From an uncultured Alphaproteobacteria bacterium (GTDB lineage: Bacteria; Pseudomonadota; Alphaproteobacteria; Rs-D84): DNA of 64,000 nt. Within the stretch, counting starts at the first letter, position 1. Each line of letters opens with the position of its first letter. The notes beneath the pieces are model-generated. The model ran no database searches. It was not told the origin of the DNA and saw only the letters and a list, made by a program, of their open reading frames with translations. Made by a program: the position numbers and the translations under genes. The stretch spans positions 44,762-108,761 of the forward strand of contig CALXMQ010000003.1 of the NCBI GenBank assembly GCA_944389515.1, read 5' to 3'. This document shows, in pieces, positions 4,847 to 40,767 of this stretch.

Positions 4847-6367
4847 ATGATTTCTTTGAATTCAATCATATTTAACGGTATGGACGCAACACAAATTGAC
4901 GTCCAGGTTCAATTATCCACAGGTTTGTCAAAACCAGAATTTAACATAATCGGATTGGCTGATCGTGCTGTCAAAGAATCTGCGGAAAGAATACGAAACG
5001 TTTTATCCGCATTAAATTTATCTTTGCCGCCCAAACGACTGACTGTGAATTTGTCGCCGGCGGATGTAGAAAAATCAGGTTCGCATTTTGATTTGCCAAT
5101 ATTATGTGGAATATTATGCGCGATTGGAATTTTGCCGGAATCAGAATTATCAAAATATATAATTATCGGCGAAGTTGGACTGAATGGTACAATCGTAAAA
5201 ACAAATGGAATATTACCTGCCAGTGTTTGGGCAAACCAACACGGCATGGGTATAATATGTCCTGGGGACCAAGGCGCCGAAGCGCGATGGGCCGGACACA
5301 CAAATATATTGGCGCCGTTTCACGTTCTGGAATTGATAAATCATTTCAAAGGAACGCAAATTTTACCCATACCCCCGTTATCCACGCCATGTGCAGAACA
5401 ATCAACACATATGGATATGGCCGAAGTGCACGGCCAGTCCGCTGCGAAACGCGCATTGGAAATTGCCGCCGCCGGTGGGCACGCAATGTTGATGGTTGGA
5501 CCACCGGGATCTGGGAAAACAATGTTGGCATCACGGTTGCCAACAATATTGCCAGAAATGACACCTGATGAAATACTGGAAACATCTATTATATATTCAA
5601 TCGCAGGGCAACTGAACGGGAAATCTTTAATTACAACGCGCCCATTTCGCAGTGTACACCATACTGCCAGTGCAATATCTTTGGCCGGTGGTGGCGCAGA
5701 TGCCAGACCAGGCGAAATTTCATTGGCGCATAATGGCGTTTTGTTCTTGGACGAATTACCAGAATTTAATCGGACGACGTTGGAAATATTACGTCAACCT
5801 ATGGAATCTGGGAAAATAATGATTGCACGTGCACGTCGCACCGCAACGTATCCGGCACAATTTCAACTGATTGCGGCAATGAATCCATGTCCATGTGGAC
5901 ATTTGGGAAATGCCGCCCTGTCCTGTTCACGCGCACCCCGTTGCGCCGAAGCGTATCAAAACAAGATTTCTGGCCCATTATTGGACAGAATTGATTTACA
6001 TGTGGATGTTGACCCGGTCAATCCATGGGAAATGAATAAAAATGACAATACACATGTTGAAACATCGGCACAAATTCGGGCACGTGTTATCGCCGCGCGT
6101 AATCGCCAAATTGAACGCCAAGGCACCCCAAACGCGCAACTGGATGGCACCTTGTTGGACACGGTTGCAAAATTATCCGATGAATTGACCCAATTTTTGA
6201 ATACCGCCGCAGAAAAAATGGGCATGTCTGCACGTGGATATAATCGTATACGTCGAATTGCACGTACCATCGCCGATTTACGTGGCGCAACAAATATAGA
6301 GATGACTGATTTAGCCGAAGCATTATCATATCGTCCAATAAATCGTGGTAAATATGGCATAAAATAA
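4847..6367 (+). CDS. comM: YifB/ComM family Mg-chelatase-like AAA+ ATPase
   Basis: GLADRAVKES, GPPGSGKT Walker A, PGEISLAHNGVLFLDELPEF, AMNPCPCG. Confidence 0.92.
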   Translation: MISLNSIIFNGMDATQIDVQVQLSTGLSKPEFNIIGLADRAVKESAERIRNVLSALNLSLPPKRLTVNLSPADVEKSGSHFDLPILCGILCAIGILPESELSKYIIIGEVGLNGTIVKTNGILPASVWANQHGMGIICPGDQGAEARWAGHTNILAPFHVLELINHFKGTQILPIPPLSTPCAEQSTHMDMAEVHGQSAAKRALEIAAAGGHAMLMVGPPGSGKTMLASRLPTILPEMTPDEILETSIIYSIAGQLNGKSLITTRPFRSVHHTASAISLAGGGADARPGEISLAHNGVLFLDELPEFNRTTLEILRQPMESGKIMIARARRTATYPAQFQLIAAMNPCPCGHLGNAALSCSRAPRCAEAYQNKISGPLLDRIDLHVDVDPVNPWEMNKNDNTHVETSAQIRARVIAARNRQIERQGTPNAQLDGTLLDTVAKLSDELTQFLNTAAEKMGMSARGYNRIRRIARTIADLRGATNIEMTDLAEALSYRPINRGKYGIK

Positions 6368-11823: not shown

Positions 11824-12137
11824 TGTATCCATAAATAAACAAGTACATTTTGTTATGGGTTGATATTCTCTCTCTCCTCTGTCCCCATGACAACAAATGT
11901 ATTATACCACCACATCCCCCAAACATACAACAAGTAAAGATTCTTTTTTTGAATATTTTTGTAAAAAAACACATATACTAATTTCAAAATACGAAATACA
12001 CACATTATTCAACCCATGCGCGAATTATTATTAAAAATATTAGGATAAAACTATCATCAACATCAGTAAACTATATTGTATTGATTTTAATTTTGTACAC
12101 TTGTATAATTCTTCGGATAAAGAAAGGAAGTATTCTT

Positions 12138-12989
12138 ATGACTGACCTGTTCGGCAACCCAAACATAAAAATAAATAAAACACATTCTAATAAAAAGGGC
12201 GCCATTTATGACAATAGGAATAAAATAAATGATTTAACTGGTGCCGAATGGCTATATTGGACTAAAACAGTTATTTCAAAAAGCTATCCTTCAAATATGC
12301 AACATAAATTGCGTTCTCAACATGGTGGTCAAAAACCCCCACAACTATGTGCCGATTTAATAAAAATTTTTACAAAAAAGGGTCAATTAGTTTTAGATCC
12401 TTTAGCAGGAGTTGGTGGAACTTTGCTTGGTGCTGCATTATGTGATAGAAAAGCGATAGGTATCGAATTAAATCCTAAATGGGCAAATATTTATAAACAA
12501 GTATGTAATTTAGAACATTTAGAAGAATATCCCTTTATTGTAGGAGACGCTAATGATAAATTAAAATATATTTTACCAAATAGTATAGATTTTGTACTAA
12601 CTGATGTACCATATTGGATAATGGATCAAGTAACCAAAACAAGATCTTCTGCTACGAGAGTTTCTAATTTATCAAAATTTAATGAAAAAAACTTGCAAAC
12701 AAAAGAAGAATGGCTAAGAGAAATGAAGGATATATTTGTTAAAGTAGCCAAAACACTGAAAAAAAATGGATATATGGCAGTTTTTATTGGGGATATGTAT
12801 CGTGGCAAAGAATATCATTTCTTGGCGGGTGAATTGGCTAAGACCATTTCTGAAATCAATGAGTTTACTTTGAAGTCTGACATCATTTGGCATGATGATT
12901 CTAAAACACTACATATATATGGTTATCCTTTTGCATATATACCTTCTGTAATACATCAACATATTTTAATTTTTAGAAAGGAAGAATAA
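12138..12989 (+). CDS. Amino-type (m4C/m6A) DNA methyltransferase (M1 of R-M system)
   Basis: Motif I VLDPLAGVGGTL before motif IV TDVPY; NDLTGAEW N-terminal motif; stop abuts the next ATG. Confidence 0.85.
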   Translation: MTDLFGNPNIKINKTHSNKKGAIYDNRNKINDLTGAEWLYWTKTVISKSYPSNMQHKLRSQHGGQKPPQLCADLIKIFTKKGQLVLDPLAGVGGTLLGAALCDRKAIGIELNPKWANIYKQVCNLEHLEEYPFIVGDANDKLKYILPNSIDFVLTDVPYWIMDQVTKTRSSATRVSNLSKFNEKNLQTKEEWLREMKDIFVKVAKTLKKNGYMAVFIGDMYRGKEYHFLAGELAKTISEINEFTLKSDIIWHDDSKTLHIYGYPFAYIPSVIHQHILIFRKEE

Positions 12990-15056
12990 ATGCAGCCCCA
13001 TTTAGTGAATCCCAGAATAACAAAAAAAAATATTTTTTCTATGGCAGATTATCAACAGCTGCGTAATGTTCATGAATTTATTTTATATAGCGACAATATT
13101 TTAGAAGGTATAGTTTTATTAAACATACTAAGTTCACACGATAATCTTTTACATTTTTATGGTGTTATATACGAACCAATAGATCAACCAATCTATTTGT
13201 TCAAAGACGCCAAAGAAAATATTTATTCAATTAAAATTTGTGGTGCTTTTGAAAAATGGCAACTGCCTAACCAAGTAAATAAAATAAAACAATTTATCGA
13301 TTTACCAGATTATATCTTATATTCGATAAATTCCCAAAAAGCGATTCTTGCAGGTGAAAACACAGAAACAGCATCCGTAGGAAATTCTCAGTGGCAAAGA
13401 GAGGGAAGAAAATTAGGTGCGGCAAGAAATGGTGTGCCTTTTATTTATCAAACTTTTTATTCTGGGAAAGACGAATCCCAACAAACACTTAGAGAACCGA
13501 CATCTTTGCAGGTTTATAATCATCTGGTATATTCTATACGTTATAAGGCACCATCTTTTGTAGCTTATTTTGAAAATAATTTTGAACAATCAAACCCAAG
13601 ATCAAGAACCCCAAAAGACAGTCAAGAACTATTTATCAATTATATTCAATCTGTACTGGTAACTGATGTAAGACCAGATCAAAATGATCAAAAAAGAAAC
13701 TTAGAAAAAAAGTTTTTCAAACACATGCTAGGATATTTAACCGAAGGAAAATATTCTAATACACACAGCATAGGAACCGAACCTAGGATACTAAGTGATT
13801 TTAGGGTAATAAATCCTGGGGTTAGAAATGGAATCATTGAACACACAGATGATTTTGTTTCGTCTTTGTTGAAATATATATATGATGATGATAAAGATTT
13901 TATAGAAAAATATCCAATAGATAATTTGGATACAGAAAAATTTGTAAATTGGACCGCTTACAGAAATAAAAATTATATCTCTAATTTATTAAAATTTTTA
14001 GAAGATCGGGGACAGCATGCAAAAAGCTATATTAAGGGACAGGCAAAAATCGGATTTGTCGATACAGAATTATGTAAAAATTATATCAGTAAGAATTTCC
14101 CAAATAGCGTAAACGCGATTGATGGAATTTTAAATTCTAAAATATACCCTATGACGTTAGTAATGCCTTTGAGAATACACAAGATATCAAATGGTAATTT
14201 AACATTTTCACCAGATCCAGAAAGTGGGGAAATAGCAGCGTTTTGCGAATTATTTGGTTATACAACAAAAAAAGAAAAGAAATACCCTGTTATCGGTTAC
14301 GTCACAGTGGATGCGGGAGAAGAATTTAATATAGAAAATAAACGTGGCACAAAATTATATAAAGCATTGGCCGAATATATAGATATTCTTATAATAAATA
14401 ACAACCAAGTTATTACTAACTTAAAAAAAACAGACATAACTGAAACACATTTTGTACCAAAATCAATACAAGATGTACACCCGATGGGAACGACAGAAGA
14501 AGTTGGTATCGTATCTACATACCTGACACAAACAAATATAAAAGATAATTGGCAGTTGTGTTTTATTCATACCCATCATTCTTCATGGCAACAATTTGTC
14601 ATACATAACGATACAAAAGACACGCAATCTAAAATACACAGAAAGTCTACCAAAGTAGACTTAATCACACAATACCCGGATAAAAATAGTACATTATTTA
14701 TGATTGCAGAAGGAAAAAATAACTATCAAGACTTGTTAAGAGATAAGAAAATTCGAACCGCTATGAAAACAGCGAGTGAACATATCAATAGCAATAATCA
14801 TATAAGCTTTAATGCCTTTATTTATACTTTGAATACGGTACAAAATAACAATCCAGAGTATTATGCAAAAAAGGAAGCAGAAACAGTGGCTGACGCTATT
14901 CGGTTGGGGCATTTTGATGATATTGCATTTGAACCAAATTTTGTGATAATCATTGTATATAATGACATACATGGAAAAACCGCATTTAAGTTAGTTTATT
15001 CATCCAATTTTGATAAACACATCAAAGCTATATTGGATTTGGATTTTGCACAATGA
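12990..15056 (+). CDS. Putative Type IIS restriction endonuclease (688 aa)
   Basis: Lies between two MTases with translational coupling (TAA-ATG, ATGA). Two PD-(D/E)xK-like motifs: LPDY...GENTE and VDLI...AEGK. Confidence 0.7.
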   Translation: MQPHLVNPRITKKNIFSMADYQQLRNVHEFILYSDNILEGIVLLNILSSHDNLLHFYGVIYEPIDQPIYLFKDAKENIYSIKICGAFEKWQLPNQVNKIKQFIDLPDYILYSINSQKAILAGENTETASVGNSQWQREGRKLGAARNGVPFIYQTFYSGKDESQQTLREPTSLQVYNHLVYSIRYKAPSFVAYFENNFEQSNPRSRTPKDSQELFINYIQSVLVTDVRPDQNDQKRNLEKKFFKHMLGYLTEGKYSNTHSIGTEPRILSDFRVINPGVRNGIIEHTDDFVSSLLKYIYDDDKDFIEKYPIDNLDTEKFVNWTAYRNKNYISNLLKFLEDRGQHAKSYIKGQAKIGFVDTELCKNYISKNFPNSVNAIDGILNSKIYPMTLVMPLRIHKISNGNLTFSPDPESGEIAAFCELFGYTTKKEKKYPVIGYVTVDAGEEFNIENKRGTKLYKALAEYIDILIINNNQVITNLKKTDITETHFVPKSIQDVHPMGTTEEVGIVSTYLTQTNIKDNWQLCFIHTHHSSWQQFVIHNDTKDTQSKIHRKSTKVDLITQYPDKNSTLFMIAEGKNNYQDLLRDKKIRTAMKTASEHINSNNHISFNAFIYTLNTVQNNNPEYYAKKEAETVADAIRLGHFDDIAFEPNFVIIIVYNDIHGKTAFKLVYSSNFDKHIKAILDLDFAQ

Positions 15057-16090
15057 AATATATCGGAAATAAAACAAGATTATTAGAATTTATAAATACC
15101 TCTATGCAAAAGAGCAATGTTCCACTTAGTGGGGTGTTTATTGATATATTTGGCGGAACAGGATCTGTAGGAAAATTCTTTAAAAGCAAAGGTTATCAAA
15201 TAATATCAAATGATTTAATGCTATATTCGTACATAGCCCAATATGTAAATGTATATTTAAATAAAATGCCAACATTTTCTAAGATTTCTTCAAATGGCAT
15301 CTGTGGCGTTTTAGATATTTTAAACAATCCTGAATTAAGTTCCCGTGGATATATTTATGATAATTTTGCTCCGGGCGGCAGTTATAAACGTCAATATTTT
15401 TCGGACGCAAATGCGATGCGCATAGACGCCGTAAGAGACCAAATAGAAAAATGGTATCAACAAAAAAAATTATCTATAGATGAATATTATGTATTAGTAT
15501 ATATGCTTATAGATGCTGCGGATTTCGTAGCTAATATTTCTGGAACATATGGGGCTTACTTAAAAATATGGCGATCCATGGCGTTAAAAACATTGTGTCT
15601 AAAAATACCAAAAATAACAGATAATAAAAAAAACAATAAAATATACCAATTAAACGCCAATGATTTAATAGAAAACATTACTGGGGATATTTTATATCTG
15701 GATCCCCCATATAATCAAAGACAATATGCTCCGAATTTTCATGTATTAGAAACATTGGCAATATGGGACAAACAAAAATTATTTGGCAAAACAGGCCAGC
15801 GTGATTATAGCAATAAAAAATCTGATTATTGTCAAAAAAGCAAAGCATCAACAGCCTTAAAAGATCTAGTGCATAAAGCTAAATGTAAATATATTATACT
15901 AAGCTATAATAATGAAGGCATAATAAGTAGAGAAGAAATTATAAAAATATTATCTTCTGTTGGAATTGTTGAAGAATATATTCAACCTTATAGGCGCTTT
16001 CGAACAGAAAAAGATAATGATAATAGACATTACAAAGATTGTGATGACAAAGTTCAAGAACATTTATATATCGTAAAAATATCTGTATAA
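15053..16090 (+). CDS. D12-class (M.NlaIII/FokI-like) N6-adenine DNA methyltransferase (M2)
   Basis: MKYIGNK, DIFGGTGSVG, YLDPPYNQRQY, LSYNNEG; pattern closely follows M.NlaIII-type enzymes. Confidence 0.92.
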   Translation: MKYIGNKTRLLEFINTSMQKSNVPLSGVFIDIFGGTGSVGKFFKSKGYQIISNDLMLYSYIAQYVNVYLNKMPTFSKISSNGICGVLDILNNPELSSRGYIYDNFAPGGSYKRQYFSDANAMRIDAVRDQIEKWYQQKKLSIDEYYVLVYMLIDAADFVANISGTYGAYLKIWRSMALKTLCLKIPKITDNKKNNKIYQLNANDLIENITGDILYLDPPYNQRQYAPNFHVLETLAIWDKQKLFGKTGQRDYSNKKSDYCQKSKASTALKDLVHKAKCKYIILSYNNEGIISREEIIKILSSVGIVEEYIQPYRRFRTEKDNDNRHYKDCDDKVQEHLYIVKISV

Positions 16091-17011: not shown

Positions 17012-17058
17012 TTGACACGGTGTCAGATTATGCGCTATTCTGACACTGTGTCAGAATA
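17012..17058 (+). promoter_or_regulatory. Promoter with twin TetR-type operators TGACAC-N-GTGTCA
   Basis: TGACAC-G-GTGTCA (17013-17025) overlaps the -35 TTGACA. TATTCTGACAC-T-GTGTCAGAATA (17036-17058, perfect 11-bp arms) overlaps the -10. Directly upstream of the TetR gene. Confidence 0.85.
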
Positions 17059-19299: not shown

Positions 19300-19327
19300 T
19301 TGACAATATGTATTTGCTTGCTATAAT
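19300..19327 (+). promoter_or_regulatory. Consensus sigma70 promoter TTGACA-16-TATAAT
   Basis: Exact hexamers 30 bp upstream of ATG 19358. Confidence 0.8.
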
Positions 19328-19357
19328 TGCAAAAAAAAACGATACAAAAGGTGTAAT

Positions 19358-19729
19358 ATGTTTTTGCGATTAAGATATTATTTCAAAACAGACCGCAAAA
19401 TACGCGTCCAGGACAAACAAGAATATGCCGACCAGCGTAAAAAGTTAAAAAATTTAGACGACATACTGGAATACCGGTGCAAAGAGATAACGATCCCATT
19501 TGATTATCCGGCTTTCTACAGTTGTCTGGGATGTATTAAACGTAGTACGATCGGGTCAGAATTCTATTGTCCTGGGTTTAGTTTTGATGTTCCTTGTGAA
19601 CATGAACACAGTTGTGTACGAGGACCTGATAATAGTAAATTTGTTAAGGCGCGACAAGAATATTTTAGCCAAAAGCAACTTGTTCATGATTTTTGGCGCA
19701 ATCGTATGCGCGAACGTGTAAAAGGGTAA
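19358..19729 (+). CDS. Hypothetical Cys-rich protein (123 aa)
   Basis: Consensus promoter and RBS AAAGG; six Cys including CLGC and CEHEHSC. Confidence 0.65.
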   Translation: MFLRLRYYFKTDRKIRVQDKQEYADQRKKLKNLDDILEYRCKEITIPFDYPAFYSCLGCIKRSTIGSEFYCPGFSFDVPCEHEHSCVRGPDNSKFVKARQEYFSQKQLVHDFWRNRMRERVKG

Positions 19730-19775: not shown

Positions 19776-22700
19776 TTCAACCTGTGCTTTAATCACGCTT
19801 GGTATTATCGGCCGTTGTGTTCGATGCGGTTACGGGTAAAATTTTGATTTTTGTTTCATATTTTGAACATAAATTGCGTTACATCACTTTCAACCCTGGG
19901 TTGAATACGAGACGCATTTTACAAGCATTTTTTTCAACATTTCAAAACTATACACGATGCAAAATACGCAAATCGATTGCTGTATTTATGCGCATTTTGA
20001 TTACAAACATGCAAAAGCGAAACAATTCAACCATTGGTTGAATTGGGTCTTGATTTTATGGCATACATCACTTTGTATTATCGACATGTGATTACAAACG
20101 ATATAAATTGATTGTGTACGATACAATATTCAACCTATGATTGAATTCTGTTTTCATTTTATATGCATGACATCACGTTACAGCAGAAACATTTAATAAA
20201 CCAGAAAGTTTTCTGTCATACAATATATACGCAAATCGTTTTAGAATTAGTCGTCTAAATCAACCACAGATTGTGTTTGATATAAAATCAAGGCCATGCC
20301 CCATAAATGGGCAAGCGATTAAACCCACATCCCCCAATATCATGGTTGTGGGATGACCGGTTGGTAAACACGTCGGCGGTGCCCAAAACACCAACCTGTA
20401 CTTTTTACAAAGGCAATGCATAAAGACCAAAAGTTATTCGCACTGTTATACATCTTGGAATTCATGAATACAACAGTGACATTGCCCTAAATACCACGGG
20501 ACAGCACAACCCCAGGTTGAACAAAAATAATTTTACACCGCCATCCTGTGATGTTCAGATTTTTTCCGTGATGCCCGAAATGTAATAAGCGGCCAGGTTG
20601 CAAAATCCGATATCCTTATCCCATATAATCGTCAGAAAATTCGATTTATTCGGCGATTGTCGTTTCACCAGATTTTGCATCAACATAGACAAGAATTTTA
20701 TTATTTAATCAACCTGCGATTGAATCAGGCCTTAAAAAAATATCGTAACAAATATTTTGTTTATTGTTATCACAGTTTTGCTTAGTTGGCAGGCGCCCCG
20801 AAACAATTCAACCACCGATTGAATTGTTTACACTATTCTATTTTTCGCACAATGTTAAAAGCAGCCGCCACGTTCAACCCTGTGTCGAATTTTAATAATA
20901 ATTCTAGTATCTTTCTCGTACAACCTGCTCGCAGACACCCGGTACAGCGTATTTAATTCAACCACGGGTTGTATTTAACCCCAAAAACATATTGTTTTCA
21001 TGTACTTATCAAAAAATGCCGGACGTAAAAATTATAAATCAGTGGCATTGGCTTACTTGTTTTATAACTGGGACGTTTTAAGGTGCGCGATTTGCCCGGT
21101 TTTGTATAAAAAAGAGACATTACGCCAAAAATCCCAGAACGTTTCAACCATAGGCTGAATAAAAAAATAACTCTAATATTTTTACACGACTTTATTTATT
21201 GGGTTTGTATTCAACCCATGGTTGAATTGCCACATGTAACAACATGATGTTTGCACACTATAACAATTTATAATCGAACACCTGCACTAATTCAACCTAT
21301 ACTAGATTTACGCGTTAAAAAATTCCGGCTCTCATGGAACGCCCGAATATTTTCGCATAACTTTGCATAAAAACGTGACAACCGATAGACAATAAAAAAT
21401 CTGCCATTTTGATTCAGAAATTATCGAACTGGGCACAGATTAGCCCCCCCTTTTTTTCATCAACAGAGCCACAAAAAATAACCCATGCGATGAATTTGTT
21501 GAATAATATTACAGTCTGTATCACCAACAGAGAAAGCATCCAAATTCAACATGTTTACTATGGGATATTTACATGTAATTTGTTCTGTTGTGGCGGCAAA
21601 CCCAACAACTTACGATTGAACTTTTGTAATAAATCAACCTGTATTAGAACTGCCGGCTAAACGCCCTACTCTTGCAACACACAAACACATTATAGCACGC
21701 GACAAAAACACCACTGTCGCAACCTGTGGTTGAATCGTACGTTGTTTTCTATTATTCGTAGGTTGAAAATATGTTTTTACACAACCTATGATTGAGTGCA
21801 TGGCCACATTTTTACACAAAATACATCATAATAAACATCTTTCTGCAACAACAAAACAGGTACCAAATTCAACCATAAGTTGCACAAACAAAACAATTCT
21901 ATTATTTCCACCGACTGCATAAATTCAACCCATGGTTGAACATTTTACTAAAATCACGTAACATACAAACGCACATTGTAATAAATACATTTTTGTATCG
22001 GCAGAAAGAGTCCACCAAATTCAACCAATGGTTGAATTTACGTTGTCTTTCTTATTTACAACAGGACACAAACGGTCACAATGCGCTAAATTCAACCCAC
22101 GGTTGAATACACGGCTTTAATCCTGCACAACACAAAAGCAGCCGATGGCAAAACCGCATAATCCGATACTCACACTATCATACATAACAATCTTGATTTG
22201 TATGAGTGGTTATGATGCCCTAAGACACACTATCAACCAAAACAAGAACACTTTTACTATTTCAACCTGTGATTGAATTACGCTTCGAATAAATGCACAA
22301 AATTTATAAAGTTTACCAAAAAAAAGAACGCGACATTTATTTCGGATACTGATTATACAAATAGAAATAATTATGTTGCAGATTGGTATGTAAATTGTGT
22401 TCGACGAGGAAATATAAAAAGTATGGCATCAGCAATCAAATTAAAAATAATGAATGGTAATGAAGCGTTGGACTGGGAACGTTTGTACCAAGACTATTAC
22501 CACTATTCATGTGATTTTAAGCATGTGAATTGGCAAAAACACTGTATGTCTACAGATACAAATTGTGCCAAGGATATGGCCACACAAATTATAAATGTGT
22601 CAAATATGTACTTTTGTTTTATAGCCAGGACATTTTAGGGTGCGATTTACCCGATTTTTGTATAAAAAGAGACTTTGCGCTAAAATTTCCAGAATGCTTC

Positions 22701-22862
22701 AACCATAGGTTGAATTAGAAAAACACTTCTAATATTGTCACCAACTTTATTTATTGGGCTCATATTCAACCTGTGATTGAATCACTGCATATAATAATAT
22801 AATGTTAGCGCGACCTAACAACTAATAGTCGAATACACATAATAGTTCAACCTATGATAGAT
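19776..22862. repeat. Cluster of about 25 dispersed palindromes TTCAACC-N3-G(G/A)TTGAA
   Basis: Perfect copies start at 19889, 20026, 21210, 21924, 22020, 22091, 22698. Near-perfect or degenerate copies at 19776, 20129, 20259, 20505, 20708, 20807, 20873, 20957, 21143, 21291, 21604, 21633, 21718, 21780, 21868, 22261, 22765, 22846. Confidence 0.93.
21059..21325 (+). repeat. Diverged ~270 bp direct repeat, copy 1
   Basis: Aligns by eye with 22615-22882, with three palindromes at matching positions. Confidence 0.85.
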
Positions 22863-22906
22863 TTATGCGTTAAAAAATCCAAGTTTTTATTACTGGGACA
22901 ATTTAA
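22615..22906 (+). repeat. Diverged ~270 bp direct repeat, copy 2, plus start of a third copy at 22883
   Basis: TTTTATAGCCAGGACATTTTAGGGTGCG...GCGTTAAAAAATCC mirrors copy 1. GTTTTTATTACTGGGACAATTTAAG at 22883 restarts the unit. Confidence 0.8.
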
Positions 22907-22970
22907 GCCCCCCCTGCCCCCAATGCAAACAATGGGTAATAAAAAATCCGCAGAAACCTGCGGAAATCTG

Positions 22971-23046
22971 TGGCTCGGGCAACTGGACTCGAACCAGTGA
23001 CATACGGATTAACAGTCCGTTGTTCTACCGACTGAACTATGCCCGA
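22971..23046 (-). tRNA. tRNA-Asn(GTT)
   Basis: TCGGGCA acceptor stem, anticodon loop CTGTTAA, TTCGAGT T-loop, G73, encoded CCA; 76 nt; terminator 22941-22965. Confidence 0.97.
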
Positions 23047-24134: not shown

Positions 24135-26440
<2,306 letters not shown>

Positions 26441-31636: not shown

Positions 31637-31676
31637 GTCCTGTTCCCTTTGATTTAATCAATTTTTGGCAAACAAT

Positions 31677-31809
31677 CTGACGGAGGTTAAAAATTTCAAA
31701 ACTCAGCCTCCTGACGGAGGTCAGACTGTCTGCCTGTTTTGAACGCTATAATAGTACTAGAAATAAAATCCTAAGCAAGTCATTTTTTTTGAAATCTAAC
31801 CTCCGTCAA
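31677..31809 (-). promoter_or_regulatory. Putative invertible promoter cassette 1 (sites A, B, C with GA core; promoter TTGCTT-16-TACTAT)
   Basis: A 31677-31690 CTGACGGAGGTTAA; B 31711-31724 CTGACGGAGGTCAG; C 31796-31809 inverted (rc TTGACGGAGGTTAG). The -35 (31773-31778) and -10 (31751-31756) lie on the minus strand between B and C. Confidence 0.8.
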
Positions 31810-31850
31810 AATGAAATATTCCATTGTTTTTTCAACAAAAAATGGAATAA

Positions 31851-38894: not shown

Positions 38895-39905
38895 TTATTT
38901 ATGCGTAAAAATTTTAATCAATGGTATAAAATCAAACAAATACACTTTGTAACATGTCGTTGTTATAATATCATGACGTTGCCGATAAATCGTTACCAAT
39001 GGTATTGATAAAAAAGTCAAACGATAACTTTTTTCATAACGCGGTTTTTCACTGATTGCCAACTTTAACCCAACGCGCATGGCGTTTTGATAAATTTTAT
39101 CCACCAATACCGCAGATGCATACGGATACAAATATTGTATCCCCGGTAAATTAGGCAAAGAATTCTTTTTCAAAAATGGCAAACCACTTTTTAACATTTC
39201 TAGTGGTTTATCATATACACGATGCATTTTATCGCCAACTTCGCCACTGATATACGTAGACATCCGGTACCCATGTTGCAATACGCGTTGTGATAAACCG
39301 ACTTCATATTTCAGTACAATCAACTGCTTATCAACCTGGTGTGTAATTTCGTTCATAAATTCATGTAAAAATGCAGAATTCGCAACACGACGCGATAAAC
39401 CAACAAACCAAGATTGAACCTGGACAGGTGTTGCCTGATTCGCAAAATCAATCATGCCAGTTAAATCCACACCACGTGTTTCTAAGTCAACCAGAATTCC
39501 TTCGATATCAAACAGTGGGCCATATACACTGTCATTTACCAGATAAACCCAATCATATTTATTTAATAAATTATTTTTATCTGCCCATTGATATCCACGT
39601 TTATATGAACCAAAGTCATATTCGCCATGGCGTTCGGCCTTGGCATGTAAAATGTTTGGTATTTCTTTTAACTTGTCCAATTCTGGGTCAGATACCTTGT
39701 TATCCATAAAGAATATAACATCGCCATACCCAGACAGGCATTGCAAATAATGTAACAAGGAATCGTCTATAATTCCTTGGGCATCATAGCCAGCAAATAA
39801 AAATAATCTTTTTGTGTTCATAATTTTGCCTGCTGTACCACCAGATGTTTTATATCGTTTTTGTTGCATGTGTATCCCCTGGTATTTAGTGCAAAACACG
39901 CGCAA
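38895..39905 (-). CDS. Rhamnan synthesis protein F (RgpF)-family glycosyltransferase; true start probably near 39820-39870
   Basis: LFLFAGYD..GIID, GEYDFGSYKRG, LVNDSVYGP, VQSWF, YEVGLSQ, PFLKK. Confidence 0.82.
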   Translation of the reverse strand: MRVFCTKYQGIHMQQKRYKTSGGTAGKIMNTKRLFLFAGYDAQGIIDDSLLHYLQCLSGYGDVIFFMDNKVSDPELDKLKEIPNILHAKAERHGEYDFGSYKRGYQWADKNNLLNKYDWVYLVNDSVYGPLFDIEGILVDLETRGVDLTGMIDFANQATPVQVQSWFVGLSRRVANSAFLHEFMNEITHQVDKQLIVLKYEVGLSQRVLQHGYRMSTYISGEVGDKMHRVYDKPLEMLKSGLPFLKKNSLPNLPGIQYLYPYASAVLVDKIYQNAMRVGLKLAISEKPRYEKSYRLTFLSIPLVTIYRQRHDIITTTCYKVYLFDFIPLIKIFTHK

Positions 39906-39906
39906 T

Positions 39907-40030
39907 CAAACGGTGGTTAGCCAAATAATAAACTGACGGTGGTCAGATTGTCTGCTTGTTTTGAACAACAACATGGTACTGGAAATAAAATTTATATCAA
40001 GTATTTTTCTTGAATTTTAACCACCGTTAG
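39907..40030 (-). promoter_or_regulatory. Putative invertible promoter cassette 2 (sites A', B', C' with GT core; promoter TTGATA-16-TACCAT)
   Basis: A' 39907-39920 CAAACGGTGGTTAG; B' 39933-39946 CTGACGGTGGTCAG; C' 40017-40030 inverted (rc CTAACGGTGGTTAA). The -35 is at 39995-40000 and the -10 at 39973-39978. Homologous to cassette 1. Confidence 0.8.
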
Positions 40031-40039
40031 ATTGAAAAA

Positions 40040-40636
40040 TTACCCGTTTGTGCGCAAAAAACGTGTTATAGTTGCCGCAGAAACGCGAAAGTTGCGTGCA
40101 ATATACATTTTCGTATAACCTTGGTTCAGCATTTTTATAACCGTTTCATATTTGCCATCCATTTTATGTCGTTTATTGCGACTGCCGAATGCACGCCCCA
40201 GTTTATATCCCTGGGCACGTCGCAATGCCAATGCTTCTTTGGTGCGTTGACTGATTAAATCGCGTTCTATTTCCGCAGATAATCCAAACGCAAATGCCAA
40301 AACCTTGCTTTGTATATTATCCCCCAATTCATATCCGTCTTTGACGGTATATACACGCGCCCCGATATTCATACAATGTTCCAAGATTCGCATTATCATG
40401 AACATCTTGCGCCCCAATCGCGACAGTTCGGAACATATCAATACATCGCCCGATTGTAATCTGCGCAGACATGACCCCAATGCGCGTTTGTTGGGCTCTT
40501 TGGTGCCAGACACGCCAGAATCTTGGATATATTTTTCAATTTGAATGCCCAGTGAACGCGCCTTGGCTTCTATGCCCAACTTTTGATTTTCGCAATCTTG
40601 GTGGTCAGTACTGACCCGTATATAGCCATATACCAT
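40040..40636 (-). CDS. Mpi-family serine recombinase (DNA invertase), 198 aa
   Basis: YGYIRVST catalytic Ser; SELSRLGRxxFMIMxIL..CM and DNIQSKVLAFAFGLSAEIERDLISQRTKEAL as in Bacteroides Mpi; C-terminal HTH; RBS AAGGAGG before ATG 40636. Confidence 0.9.
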   Translation of the reverse strand: MVYGYIRVSTDHQDCENQKLGIEAKARSLGIQIEKYIQDSGVSGTKEPNKRALGSCLRRLQSGDVLICSELSRLGRKMFMIMRILEHCMNIGARVYTVKDGYELGDNIQSKVLAFAFGLSAEIERDLISQRTKEALALRRAQGYKLGRAFGSRNKRHKMDGKYETVIKMLNQGYTKMYIARNFRVSAATITRFLRTNG

Positions 40637-40767
40637 TTTATTTACCTCCTTGGTTTTGTATGTGGTTATGGCTGGATTATATGTATTTATGAAAAAAATC
40701 CTGATACATTTAATAAAAATCGCCCCGAATTTTCCAGGGGCGGATGACATGAAAATATGTATACAGT

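Follow-up and report, generated by a model that had tools for sequence, protein, structure and literature searches.

What purpose might be served by a 3.2-kb non-coding stretch that adjoins the tRNA-Asn gene of a chicken-gut Candidatus Enterousia species and is filled with copies of one short palindrome? Within the 64-kb stretch of DNA that was analysed (hereafter the window), the non-coding tract runs from the stop codon of a 123-aa ORF (19729) to the tRNA-Asn terminator (22947), and motif scans place in it an array of ~24 palindromic sites (19776..22862). The motif is TTCAACC-N3-GRTTGAA; the exact pattern searched was TTCAACCNNNGRTTGAA, and searches allowing up to three mismatches were made against TTCAACCNNNGGTTGAA. 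Exact copies occur at 11 distinct positions in the window, every one of them within 19889-22781, as against 0.01 matches in a shuffled window; seven are fully symmetric (right arm GGTTGAA) and four carry GATTGAA. With up to three mismatches the window holds 24 matches, 20 of which fall within 19776-22862, and half-degenerate copies at 20259, 21291, 21633 and 21780 bring the total to ~24 sites, in good agreement with the first-pass annotation of this DNA, which had described about 25 palindromes, seven of them perfect. The 61 kb beyond the array contain no exact copy and four near matches (up to three mismatches), where 4.3 are expected by chance; a degenerate copy earlier proposed at 12008 has three mismatches and is no better than chance. 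Such chance-level scatter does not fit an even, REP-like spread of the motif, which had been raised as an objection to a dedicated array.

The sites lie 29-508 bp apart from start to start, with all three phases represented; the irregularity of spacing noted earlier (then given as about 55-440 bp) stands. Three-site modules recur at 20807..20973 (sites at 20807, 20873 and 20957; spacing 66 and 84 bp), at 21143..21307 (21143, 21210 and 21291; spacing 67 and 81 bp) and at 22698..22862 (22698, 22765 and 22846), the last two lying within the copies of a segmental duplication (21057-21323 and 22614-22878, 77% identical). A 207-bp module at 21718..21940 (sites at 21718, 21780, 21868 and then 21924; spacing 62/88/56 bp) is homologous to tandem 207-bp units of the array-bearing contig L066 and to positions 1276-1503 of a second such contig, L060. 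Further sites include a perfect one with 10-bp arms at 22020..22036, TTCAACCtgtGATTGAA at 22261..22277 and degenerate ones with two mismatches at 20505..20521 and 20708..20724; site 20957, the third in its module, shows with its right arm GGTTGTA a typical degenerate form. A tandem-repeat search (TRF) of the tract returned only a 26-bp stretch of period 13 (19917-19942), and the sites form no tandem array within it. Neither AA/TT helical periodicity over the array nor, as island scars, tRNA-Asn fragments within the window tract were detected.

On the right, tRNA-Asn (GTT) is encoded on the minus strand (22971..23046) with its 3' side toward the array and its terminator at 22947-22964; in this genus the gene is an island-integration site, with the crossover within the anticodon loop. 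On the left, the 123-aa ORF (19358..19729, plus strand, with a consensus promoter at 19300-19327) is a Cys-rich, lineage-specific ORFan, variable cargo at the edge of the array that is not conserved beside other arrays. The largest site-free gap holds a 71-aa ATG-initiated ORF of uncertain coding status (22423..22638, plus strand) that matches no family, and the longest ORF in the tract, 121 aa, starts from TTG, which bears out the earlier view that no credible long ORF is present.

The arms of these palindromes are kept as sequence, not as hairpin structure. Specifically, arm complementarity is at the level that column composition predicts, with no covariation or compensatory changes beyond it, and the positions flanking the centre are anti-complementary and avoid pairing, which argues that sequence is what is selected. 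Extended arms, which had been reported for some sites, are indeed present: 12 of 13 positions pair at 20801-20829, and 10-bp arms occur at 20023-20045 and 22017-22039. The biased 3-nt centre was likewise borne out; among 50 sites in four arrays, the centre triplet is YRY or RYR in 36 (p = 4e-12) and TGT/ACA in 19, and such an alternating triplet is as expected of a deformable dyad. The flanks are symmetric too: 32 of the 50 sites have A at -21 and 39 have T at +22 (p down to 3e-11), which places A and T tracts symmetrically 21-22 bp from the dyad, and the 46-bp consensus of site plus flanks reads aaaa-N11-AATTCAACCTGTGGTTGAATT-N11-tttt.

Homologous arrays built of 207-bp three-site modules adjoin tRNA-Asn in two other species. 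Genome-wide two-site scans, which cover paired sites and not single copies elsewhere in a full genome, found true arrays at this tRNA-Asn locus type only, in two other chicken-gut alphaproteobacterial MAGs, and found none among the viral and JGI metagenome contigs scanned. In orthologous modules of the three species the site cores are 88-93% identical as against 57-66% for the rest, and the module alignments are nearly gap-free, with spacing conserved. Within the species, changes affect 10 of 266 core positions (3.8%) as against ~5.6% elsewhere, a difference in the expected direction that is not significant. Two further relatives carry 1-2 degenerate sites only, so the array is dispensable and any benefit accessory; it is not a core chromosome element. 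Plasmid and phage records show no similarity to the array, a literature search for the motif returned chance occurrences alone, and metagenome contigs mapped to one 52-nt region around a site, by a method unsuited to 17-mers, yielded the tract alone. Several apparent relatives were set aside: in L077 and L095 the 17-mer forms repeat arrays that are unrelated, L156 is an unrelated contig with six tandem copies, and the palindrome TCCAACCgacGGTTGGA of L171 and L172 resembles an intrinsic terminator (a stem and then a T run). In the viral contig L067 (three sites inside a 163-aa ORF), in L091, L140 and L143 and in other metagenome matches, the 17-mer lies within long reading frames, as coding repeats.

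The reading that we favour, at a probability of roughly 40%, is that the tract is a single-locus array of double-stranded DNA recognition sites for a dimeric, sequence-specific, DNA-bending protein, forming an accessory and fast-evolving platform at a hotspot of island integration. Protein binding and DNA bending at the sites are predicted from the core together with the A and T tracts at +/-21-22, which imply a symmetric footprint on bent DNA. Each site would comprise a core, (A)ATTCAACC-YRY-GGTTGAAT(T), flanked by an A tract around -21/-22 and by a T tract around +21/+22, and the DNA would bend around the protein over a symmetric footprint of ~46-50 bp. The binder would probably belong to the helix-turn-helix regulators or the architectural proteins, and it may derive from a mobile element. 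A module of ~207 bp with three sites (spacing ~63/88/56 bp) would be the unit that is copied in tandem, deleted and inverted, and rearrangements at the sites may be a by-product of having many near-identical palindromes. Together the sites could serve as a high-capacity platform on the side of tRNA-Asn that faces the chromosome, acting either as a sponge or as an extended nucleoprotein tract; this tRNA gene is the main island-integration site of the Candidatus Enterousia lineage studied here. The first-pass annotation had proposed a landing pad for a dimeric protein; that part is the best supported, by the conserved arms, the A/T flanks and the better conservation of cores than of spacers, while most of the functions then suggested for it are disfavoured.

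The motif could be linked to no candidate binder (a TetR and an 84-aa helix-turn-helix protein were considered), and no regulated gene is evident. The neighbouring TetR has its own, different operators (TCTGACACnGTGTCAGA), conserved in two species; the gene at 24135 for the 84-aa protein lies beside ligA also in genomes without arrays and found no support as the source of the binder; and an FtsK-like gene of L066, whose Walker A motif is degenerate, has no counterpart in the window.

Rearrangements at the sites are seen between strains and between species. In run X15 a 103-bp deletion joins the perfect, 10-bp-arm site at 20026..20042 to the site TTCAACCtatGATTGAA at 20129..20145 (20024->20128) with an 8-nt shared junction, and a contig of that run diverges at 22108, directly after a perfect site (22091..22107). 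Contigs of other strains stop matching exactly at the site edges 19889 (the left edge of the perfect site TTCAACCctgGGTTGAA, 19889..19905), 21941, 22108 and 22715, and a 440-bp segment is inverted in L066 (2384-2872) relative to L060 (1234-806), with homology ending at palindromes on both sides. Other indel boundaries lie away from sites, namely those of a 207-bp insertion at 22596 in other strains, of ~300 bp missing in some strains near 22698..22862 (joints 22621->22938 and 22638->22937) and the divergence point of L179; the L066 counterpart of 22698..22862 (5330-5500) is ~265 bp shorter. Variable cargo lodged among the sites includes the 123-aa ORFan, the FtsK-like gene, a TetR operon that splits the array in L032 and L066, and a NUDIX gene (L179). 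In run X1 the tract assembles without branches into a single contig at 25x depth and thus shows no sign of frequent switching.

Breakpoints at sites fit a recombinase target equally well as a binding platform, and it is possible, if on the unlikely side, that the palindromes are core-type sites of a site-specific recombinase engaged in shufflon- or integron-like shuffling, or a cassette platform at the tRNA-Asn hotspot. The layout would be ATTCAA|C-CNNNG-G|TTGAAT, two inverted arms around a 7-bp overlap, as in tyrosine-recombinase sites and the ‘simple site’ of integrons, RYYYAAC-N5-GTTRRRY (PMC3053210). The consensus ATTCAAC / GTTGAAT fits these boxes, which stand 5 bp apart, and among the 50 sites taken individually RYYYAAC is matched by 30 left arms and GTTRRRY by 31 right arms. 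The palindrome-bounded inversion, the site-to-site deletion, the exact loss of homology at site edges and the lodged cargo would all be natural outcomes of such an activity, as would the inverted-repeat relation between site A (..TGT..) and site C (..ACA..) of the module. However, breakpoints at repeats arise with any repeat family, several indel boundaries are off-site, the run X1 assembly shows no frequent switching, the arms are short (7-9 bp), and the centre triplets vary among sites, which blocks classical strand exchange. Moreover, the 64 kb contain no tyrosine recombinase gene, and the sole recombinase, an Mpi-like serine invertase encoded at 40040-40750, 17 kb from the array, has its own, different inverted repeats.

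Likeness to integron attC sites and CALINs extends beyond the matching arms and their 5-bp gap to hypervariability, ORFan cargo and breaks at the sites, but an attC site spans 57-141 bp, combines two simple sites with an imperfect palindrome inside and has extrahelical bases, whereas the sites here are single and 19 bp long. In addition, the DNA between sites lacks structure, the majority of ‘cassettes’ would have no content, and neither intI nor attI was recognized, there being no tyrosine recombinase in the window or among the array-flanking ORFs of L066 and L060 (the scan took in these two contigs and not L032). As in shufflons and invertons (Rci/sfx; Mpi- or Hin-type), repeat-bounded segments are inverted between species, yet here no coding gene or promoter is switched and no within-population switching was seen. 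The inner AACC..GGTT of our motif recalls hix and gix sites, but a Hin/Gin-type site is 26 bp with 12-bp half-sites and a 2-bp serine-recombinase crossover, as against a 3-bp centre here, and lies beside an invertase gene and an invertible segment. A bolder form of the idea, which we consider quite improbable, is a recombination platform of a new kind, in which minimal 19-bp sites of simple-site layout and a recombinase encoded elsewhere would duplicate, delete, invert and perhaps capture short segments and small genes beside tRNA-Asn, a pared-down cousin of integrons and shufflons in a ~1-Mb gut alphaproteobacterium.

Rather unlikely, too, is a selfish or neutral palindromic repeat (REP-, MITE- or satellite-like) amplified locally through unequal crossing-over and slippage in a hotspot under little constraint, with no dedicated binder and no benefit. 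Species that share about 80-87% nucleotide identity carry anything from 1-2 to ~25 copies, tandem 207-bp copies are 91% identical, the segmental duplication adds a 77% pair, segments vary in presence between strains, site decay within the species is near-neutral, and the location is an integration site that accumulates junk, all of which suits such a repeat. What it leaves unexplained is the much stronger conservation of cores than of spacers between species, which neither neutral decay nor whole-unit homogenisation predicts, and the presence of two features of recognition sites, the centre-triplet rule and the symmetric A/T tracts. REP and BIME elements do resemble the array in being short, imperfect, extragenic palindromes that cluster, are rearrangement hotspots and bind proteins (a capacity known for REP/BIME and putative here), but REPs exist as hundreds of dispersed copies, often with a RAYT transposase. 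Our motif is confined to one locus type, with none in the 61 kb flanking and clusters at that locus type in two MAGs; no RAYT (Y1 transposase) domain occurs among the window ORFs scanned, and no REP-associated transposase gene lies nearby.

A chromosome organiser, which might mean a non-canonical centromere, a region for SMC loading or an element of the origin or terminus, had been among the options first listed and now appears very improbable. Its appeal lay in the high site density and in a likeness to palindrome arrays of plasmid centromeres such as F sopC, where a dimeric helix-turn-helix protein occupies a plasmid-borne array of short palindromes with a strict 43-bp period beside sopAB. 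Both loci have many 16-17-bp palindromes with 7-bp arms in one non-coding tract and a tandemly repeated unit; unlike sopC, however, our array is irregularly spaced, chromosomal and missing from sister species, with no partition genes near, and no regular tandem repeat of sopC type beside partition ATPase and adaptor genes occurs in the window. Cumulative GC skew declines steadily throughout the window and does not switch at the tract, parS-like sequences (TGTTNCACGTGAAACA) are not above chance, no par, partition or replication genes are among the neighbours, no dif site is present (up to three mismatches to the 28-bp 11-6-11 consensus), and the tract has one near-DnaA box and no cluster, all of which makes an origin, terminus or centromere role unlikely. 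Furthermore, sister species lack the array or keep a vestige of it, and this holds also for contigs of ~1 Mb from Ca. E. intestinigallinarum-like genomes. P1 incA iterons and E. coli datA offer a functional parallel, being non-coding groups of binding sites that serve to retain a protein and not to drive a gene, but these bind a known initiator at 5-9 sites in 0.3-1 kb for replication control, and our array has no link to an origin.

The tract as a source of hairpin-rich ncRNAs, or of hairpins acting in single-stranded DNA, another of the early suggestions, retains hardly any likelihood. The palindromes could fold as 7-10-bp stems, and when adjacent sites are folded together as a single strand, 10 of the 18 pairs examined match at least 7 of the 8 positions of the outer arm to the distal end of the neighbouring site. 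Against this, covariation is absent, pairing is avoided on either side of the centre, the DNA between sites folds no better than expected (z -1.3 to +1.5), only the tRNA scores against Rfam covariance models, and the tract has no promoter excess. The only runs labelled ‘RNA’ that contain the locus give an even-depth 21-kb contig, behaviour that is DNA-like and uninformative on transcripts, and a wobble-strand idea was dropped because G-to-A variants lie on the right arm in the window and on the left arm in L066, leaving no consistent RNA strand between species. Nor do the sites qualify as a CRISPR, given their variable centre, 29-508-bp spacing and ‘spacers’ that are homologous between species. 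Finally, a decayed gene for an IQPxVE-type repeat protein, suggested by the same 17-mer within coding repeats of unrelated organisms (L067, L091, L140), can practically be discounted, as all frames hold stop codons, site spacings fall in all three phases, the arrays are non-coding in all three species and coding-type conservation is absent from them.

Three kilobases of non-coding DNA are costly in a very small genome (contigs of ~1 Mb). If a protein coats the tract, the array would be a natural large binding-site array that evolves through copy-number change, and it would offer a handle on the buffering of regulators or architectural proteins, or on the organisation of integration hotspots. 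If instead the sites are recombinase targets, they would represent a minimal cassette-shuffling system beyond the known integron and shufflon families. Under either reading, the motif is a clean probe with which to fish a DNA-binding protein from an uncultured gut lineage.

The palindrome cluster that the first-pass annotation described at 19776-22862 is borne out: TTCAACCNNNGRTTGAA occurs exactly at 11 distinct positions in the window, every one of them within this tract, against 0.01 in shuffled sequence. With up to three mismatches allowed there are 24 matches, of which 20 lie in the tract and four outside (versus 4.3 expected by chance), and adding half-degenerate copies brings the total to about 24 sites. 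The four outside, all at chance level, include the further copy noted in front of the restriction-modification operon (12008). No ORF in the tract exceeds 121 aa (and that one has a TTG start), and we do not read the tract as a decayed gene. Promoter-like sites are not enriched there, while an excess of 'terminator-like' matches arises largely because five of the ten are the palindromes themselves.

Alignment of 50 sites from four arrays defines a conserved core, (A)ATTCAACC-NNN-GGTTGAAT. Pairing between positions -k and +k is at the level predicted from column composition, there are no compensatory changes, and the positions adjacent to the centre pair more rarely than chance, so the arms are kept as sequence and not as hairpin. 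In 36 of the 50 sites the central triplet is an alternation of pyrimidine and purine (p = 4e-12), with TGT/ACA accounting for 19. Beyond the arms, an A tract occurs at -22/-21 (30/50 and 32/50 sites) and a T tract at +21/+22 (35/50 and 39/50), with p-values down to 3e-11. A dimeric protein that bends about 46-50 bp of duplex DNA would be expected to leave just such traces: a flexible centre and, two helical turns away from the dyad, a symmetric sequence signal. The landing pad for a dimeric protein proposed at first pass is the best-supported reading once narrowed to exclude any role as chromosome organiser: the tract is probably an accessory, lineage-specific, recombinogenic array of putative symmetric duplex-DNA recognition sites at a tRNA-Asn integration hotspot, and tentatively (probability about 0.4) a non-catalytic binding platform. 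The closest functional analogues of a pure binding array are sopC-type plasmid centromeres and titration loci such as P1 incA and datA, and none of their defining contexts occurs at this array.

In a two-site pattern scan over 185,579 species genomes, true arrays were found in only two other MAGs, both alphaproteobacterial and from chicken gut: BRZ_KQ_bin82 (contiguous loci L032 and L066; 16 sites plus a 7-site mini-array) and BRZ_MA_bin39 (L060; 13 sites). Viral contigs and JGI metagenomes yielded just chance matches, coding repeats or unrelated repeats, and plasmid and phage collections nothing similar. An unrelated, apparently eukaryote-like metagenome contig carries six tandem copies of TTCAACCnnnGGTTGAA with a 20-23-bp period in non-coding DNA (L156 2046-2165). 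All three arrays end beside tRNA-Asn or beside its 3' half, stranded when an island entered the anticodon loop. They also have in common a homologous three-site module of about 207 bp (spacing 63/88/56), which stands in tandem in L066 (91% identity). Module alignments are almost gap-free; between species, identity is 88-93% at positions that are core in one of the two and 57-66% at the rest, so over the long term the site cores are protected.

The sites are also recombinogenic. For example, bin82 (L066 2384-2872) and bin39 (L060 1234-806) carry one 440-bp segment in opposite orientations, with homology ending at a palindrome on each side, and L060 holds smaller module pieces in both orientations. 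One contig of run X15 passes from 20024 straight to 20128: 103 bp have been deleted between neighbouring sites 20026 and 20129, and the junction shares 8 letters. In contigs of other strains or species similarity ends exactly at the site edges 19889, 21941, 22108 and 22715. Any repeat family attracts rearrangements, so these breakpoints do not demonstrate a dedicated recombinase. That the palindromes are recombinase core sites is unlikely in our view, with a tyrosine-recombinase core site a live rival nonetheless. The inner AACC..GGTT recalls the hix/gix invertase sites, which have a 2-bp crossover to which the 3-bp centre is unsuited. Read as ATTCAAC-CNNNG-GTTGAAT, a site has the layout of the integron 'simple site', with 30 of 50 left and 31 of 50 right arms fitting RYYYAAC and GTTRRRY, respectively; as the boxes are 5 bp apart, the overlap is 7 bp. 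Integron membership fails since attC sites span 57-141 bp with an internal palindrome (simple-site boxes RYYYAAC/GTTRRRY; PMC3053210), whereas here the inter-site DNA is unstructured and no integrase gene is near. Nor was any tyrosine-recombinase gene found in the 64-kb window, whose sole recombinase, an Mpi-family serine invertase (254.8 bits, below the cut-off of 272), adjoins invertible-promoter-like elements with inverted repeats different from the array sites.

These two elements (31655-31830 and 39905-40040; recombinase gene 40040-40750, minus strand) are homologous, about 110-130 bp long, bounded by ACGGAGGTTA.. / ..TAACCTCCGT and AACGGTGGTTA / TAACCACCGTT, and both upstream of glycosyltransferase/RgpF operons. 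In this alphaproteobacterium they resemble phase-variable polysaccharide promoters of the Bacteroides kind.

Array content turns over between relatives. Candidatus Enterousia intestinigallinarum-like genomes have no more than two sites, both degenerate, in the 590 bp to the left of tRNA-Asn (L168), and L167 has the same two, separated by an inserted island from an intact tRNA-Asn. Another species (L179, 87% identity) lacks an array: here the 123-aa gene is followed by a single weak site, by a NUDIX gene and finally by the tRNA half. In bin82 the mini-array and the main array are separated by the TetR-flavodoxin-DUF362 operon, which gives the impression of an insertion into an older array. Within the window, 21057-21323 and 22614-22878 form a segmental duplication (77%), and past the first of them (around 21345-21404) comes a diverged version of the sequence adjoining the tRNA. 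Strain differences are an insertion of 207 bp at 22596, another of 30 bp near 20550 and the loss of about 300 bp around 22621-22938. In a strain of the window's species about 5% diverged (run X18), changes affect 10/266 core positions (3.8%) and 5/57 centre positions, against about 5.6% elsewhere, a weak, non-significant depletion in cores; several changes shift a degenerate copy towards consensus. The array is both dispensable and quick to change. A selfish or neutral repeat is a reading we hold to be somewhat less probable still than recombinase core sites.

The other readings (chromosome organiser, RNA locus, decayed gene) keep only small remainders. The origin, terminus and centromere options of the first-pass annotation, and likewise a dif or parS region, are rejected: cumulative GC skew declines steadily along the window and does not switch at the tract, which has a single near-DnaA box; dif is absent, parS matches do not rise above chance, and the window carries neither replication nor partition genes. 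The hairpin-RNA option of the first-pass annotation is set aside as well, as the tract matches no Rfam family, inter-site DNA does not fold in excess, compensatory changes are absent, and G-to-A arm variants fall on opposite arms in different species and therefore mark no RNA strand. REP/BIME elements are rejected because the motif is clustered, not dispersed, and no RAYT gene is present, and CRISPR because of variable centres, irregular spacing and spacers homologous across species.

The tRNA-Asn is a very active integration site in the genus (window 22971-23046; L167 6467-6512; L066 3679-3696; L060 about 1700-1745; L179 about 9700; also L173 and L174), with crossover in the anticodon loop directly after ..ggattaacagt. 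The islands vary by genome (restriction-modification genes, defence-like genes, serine and tyrosine integrases), and most metagenome assemblies stop here. Island recombinase genes have other short-repeat clusters next to them. One (L066 5230-5345) comprises eight or nine copies of TGATTTCA/TGAAATCA, lying in both orientations, and part of it is the 207-bp insertion that other strains have at 22596; the second (L060 2500-2720) has about seven copies of TTCGTGAA and lies upstream of a resolvase gene. Both arrays (L066 2749-2818; L060 835-940) contain a roughly 70-bp imperfect palindromic block that recurs between two divergent island genes (L060 4712-4785). At about 90%, its identity between the two species is far above that of its surroundings, and it may be a bidirectional promoter or operator.

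The tract is flanked on its left by genes for a TetR, a flavodoxin and a DUF362 protein and by a 123-aa ORFan. On its right comes the minus-strand tRNA-Asn(GTT), whose 3' end and terminator point at the tract, followed by fabI, the gene for an 84-aa HTH protein, and ligA. Two copies of the palindrome TCTGACACnGTGTCAGA, presumably TetR's own operators, overlap the TetR promoter (17012-17055) and are kept in a second species (L032 5806-5850). The Cys-rich ORFan (19300-19729; also L177, L178 and L179) has a perfect TTGACA-16-TATAAT promoter. Its homologues form only seven clusters, none from outside this lineage; identity is 61-95% where they align, and two clusters span just 31-47% of the protein. 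In L178 the gene has other neighbours, namely serine-recombinase fragments and two palindromic sites. A low-GC (about 30%) restriction-modification island of three genes at 12081-16090, encoding an N6/N4 methylase, a 688-aa protein without family match and a D12-class adenine methylase, is common only to same-species strains (L072, L177). The remainder of the window is ordinary housekeeping DNA and a polysaccharide region.

The source is a chicken-gut bacterium whose FabI is 98% identical to that of Ca. E. intestinigallinarum; as the DNA is only about 79% identical, it is another species of the same group. Among close relatives (L167-L169; contigs of 0.34-1.04 Mb), assembly yields contigs of about 1.03 Mb. 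This points to a very small genome in this gut lineage, for which a 3-kb non-coding tract would be proportionally costly.
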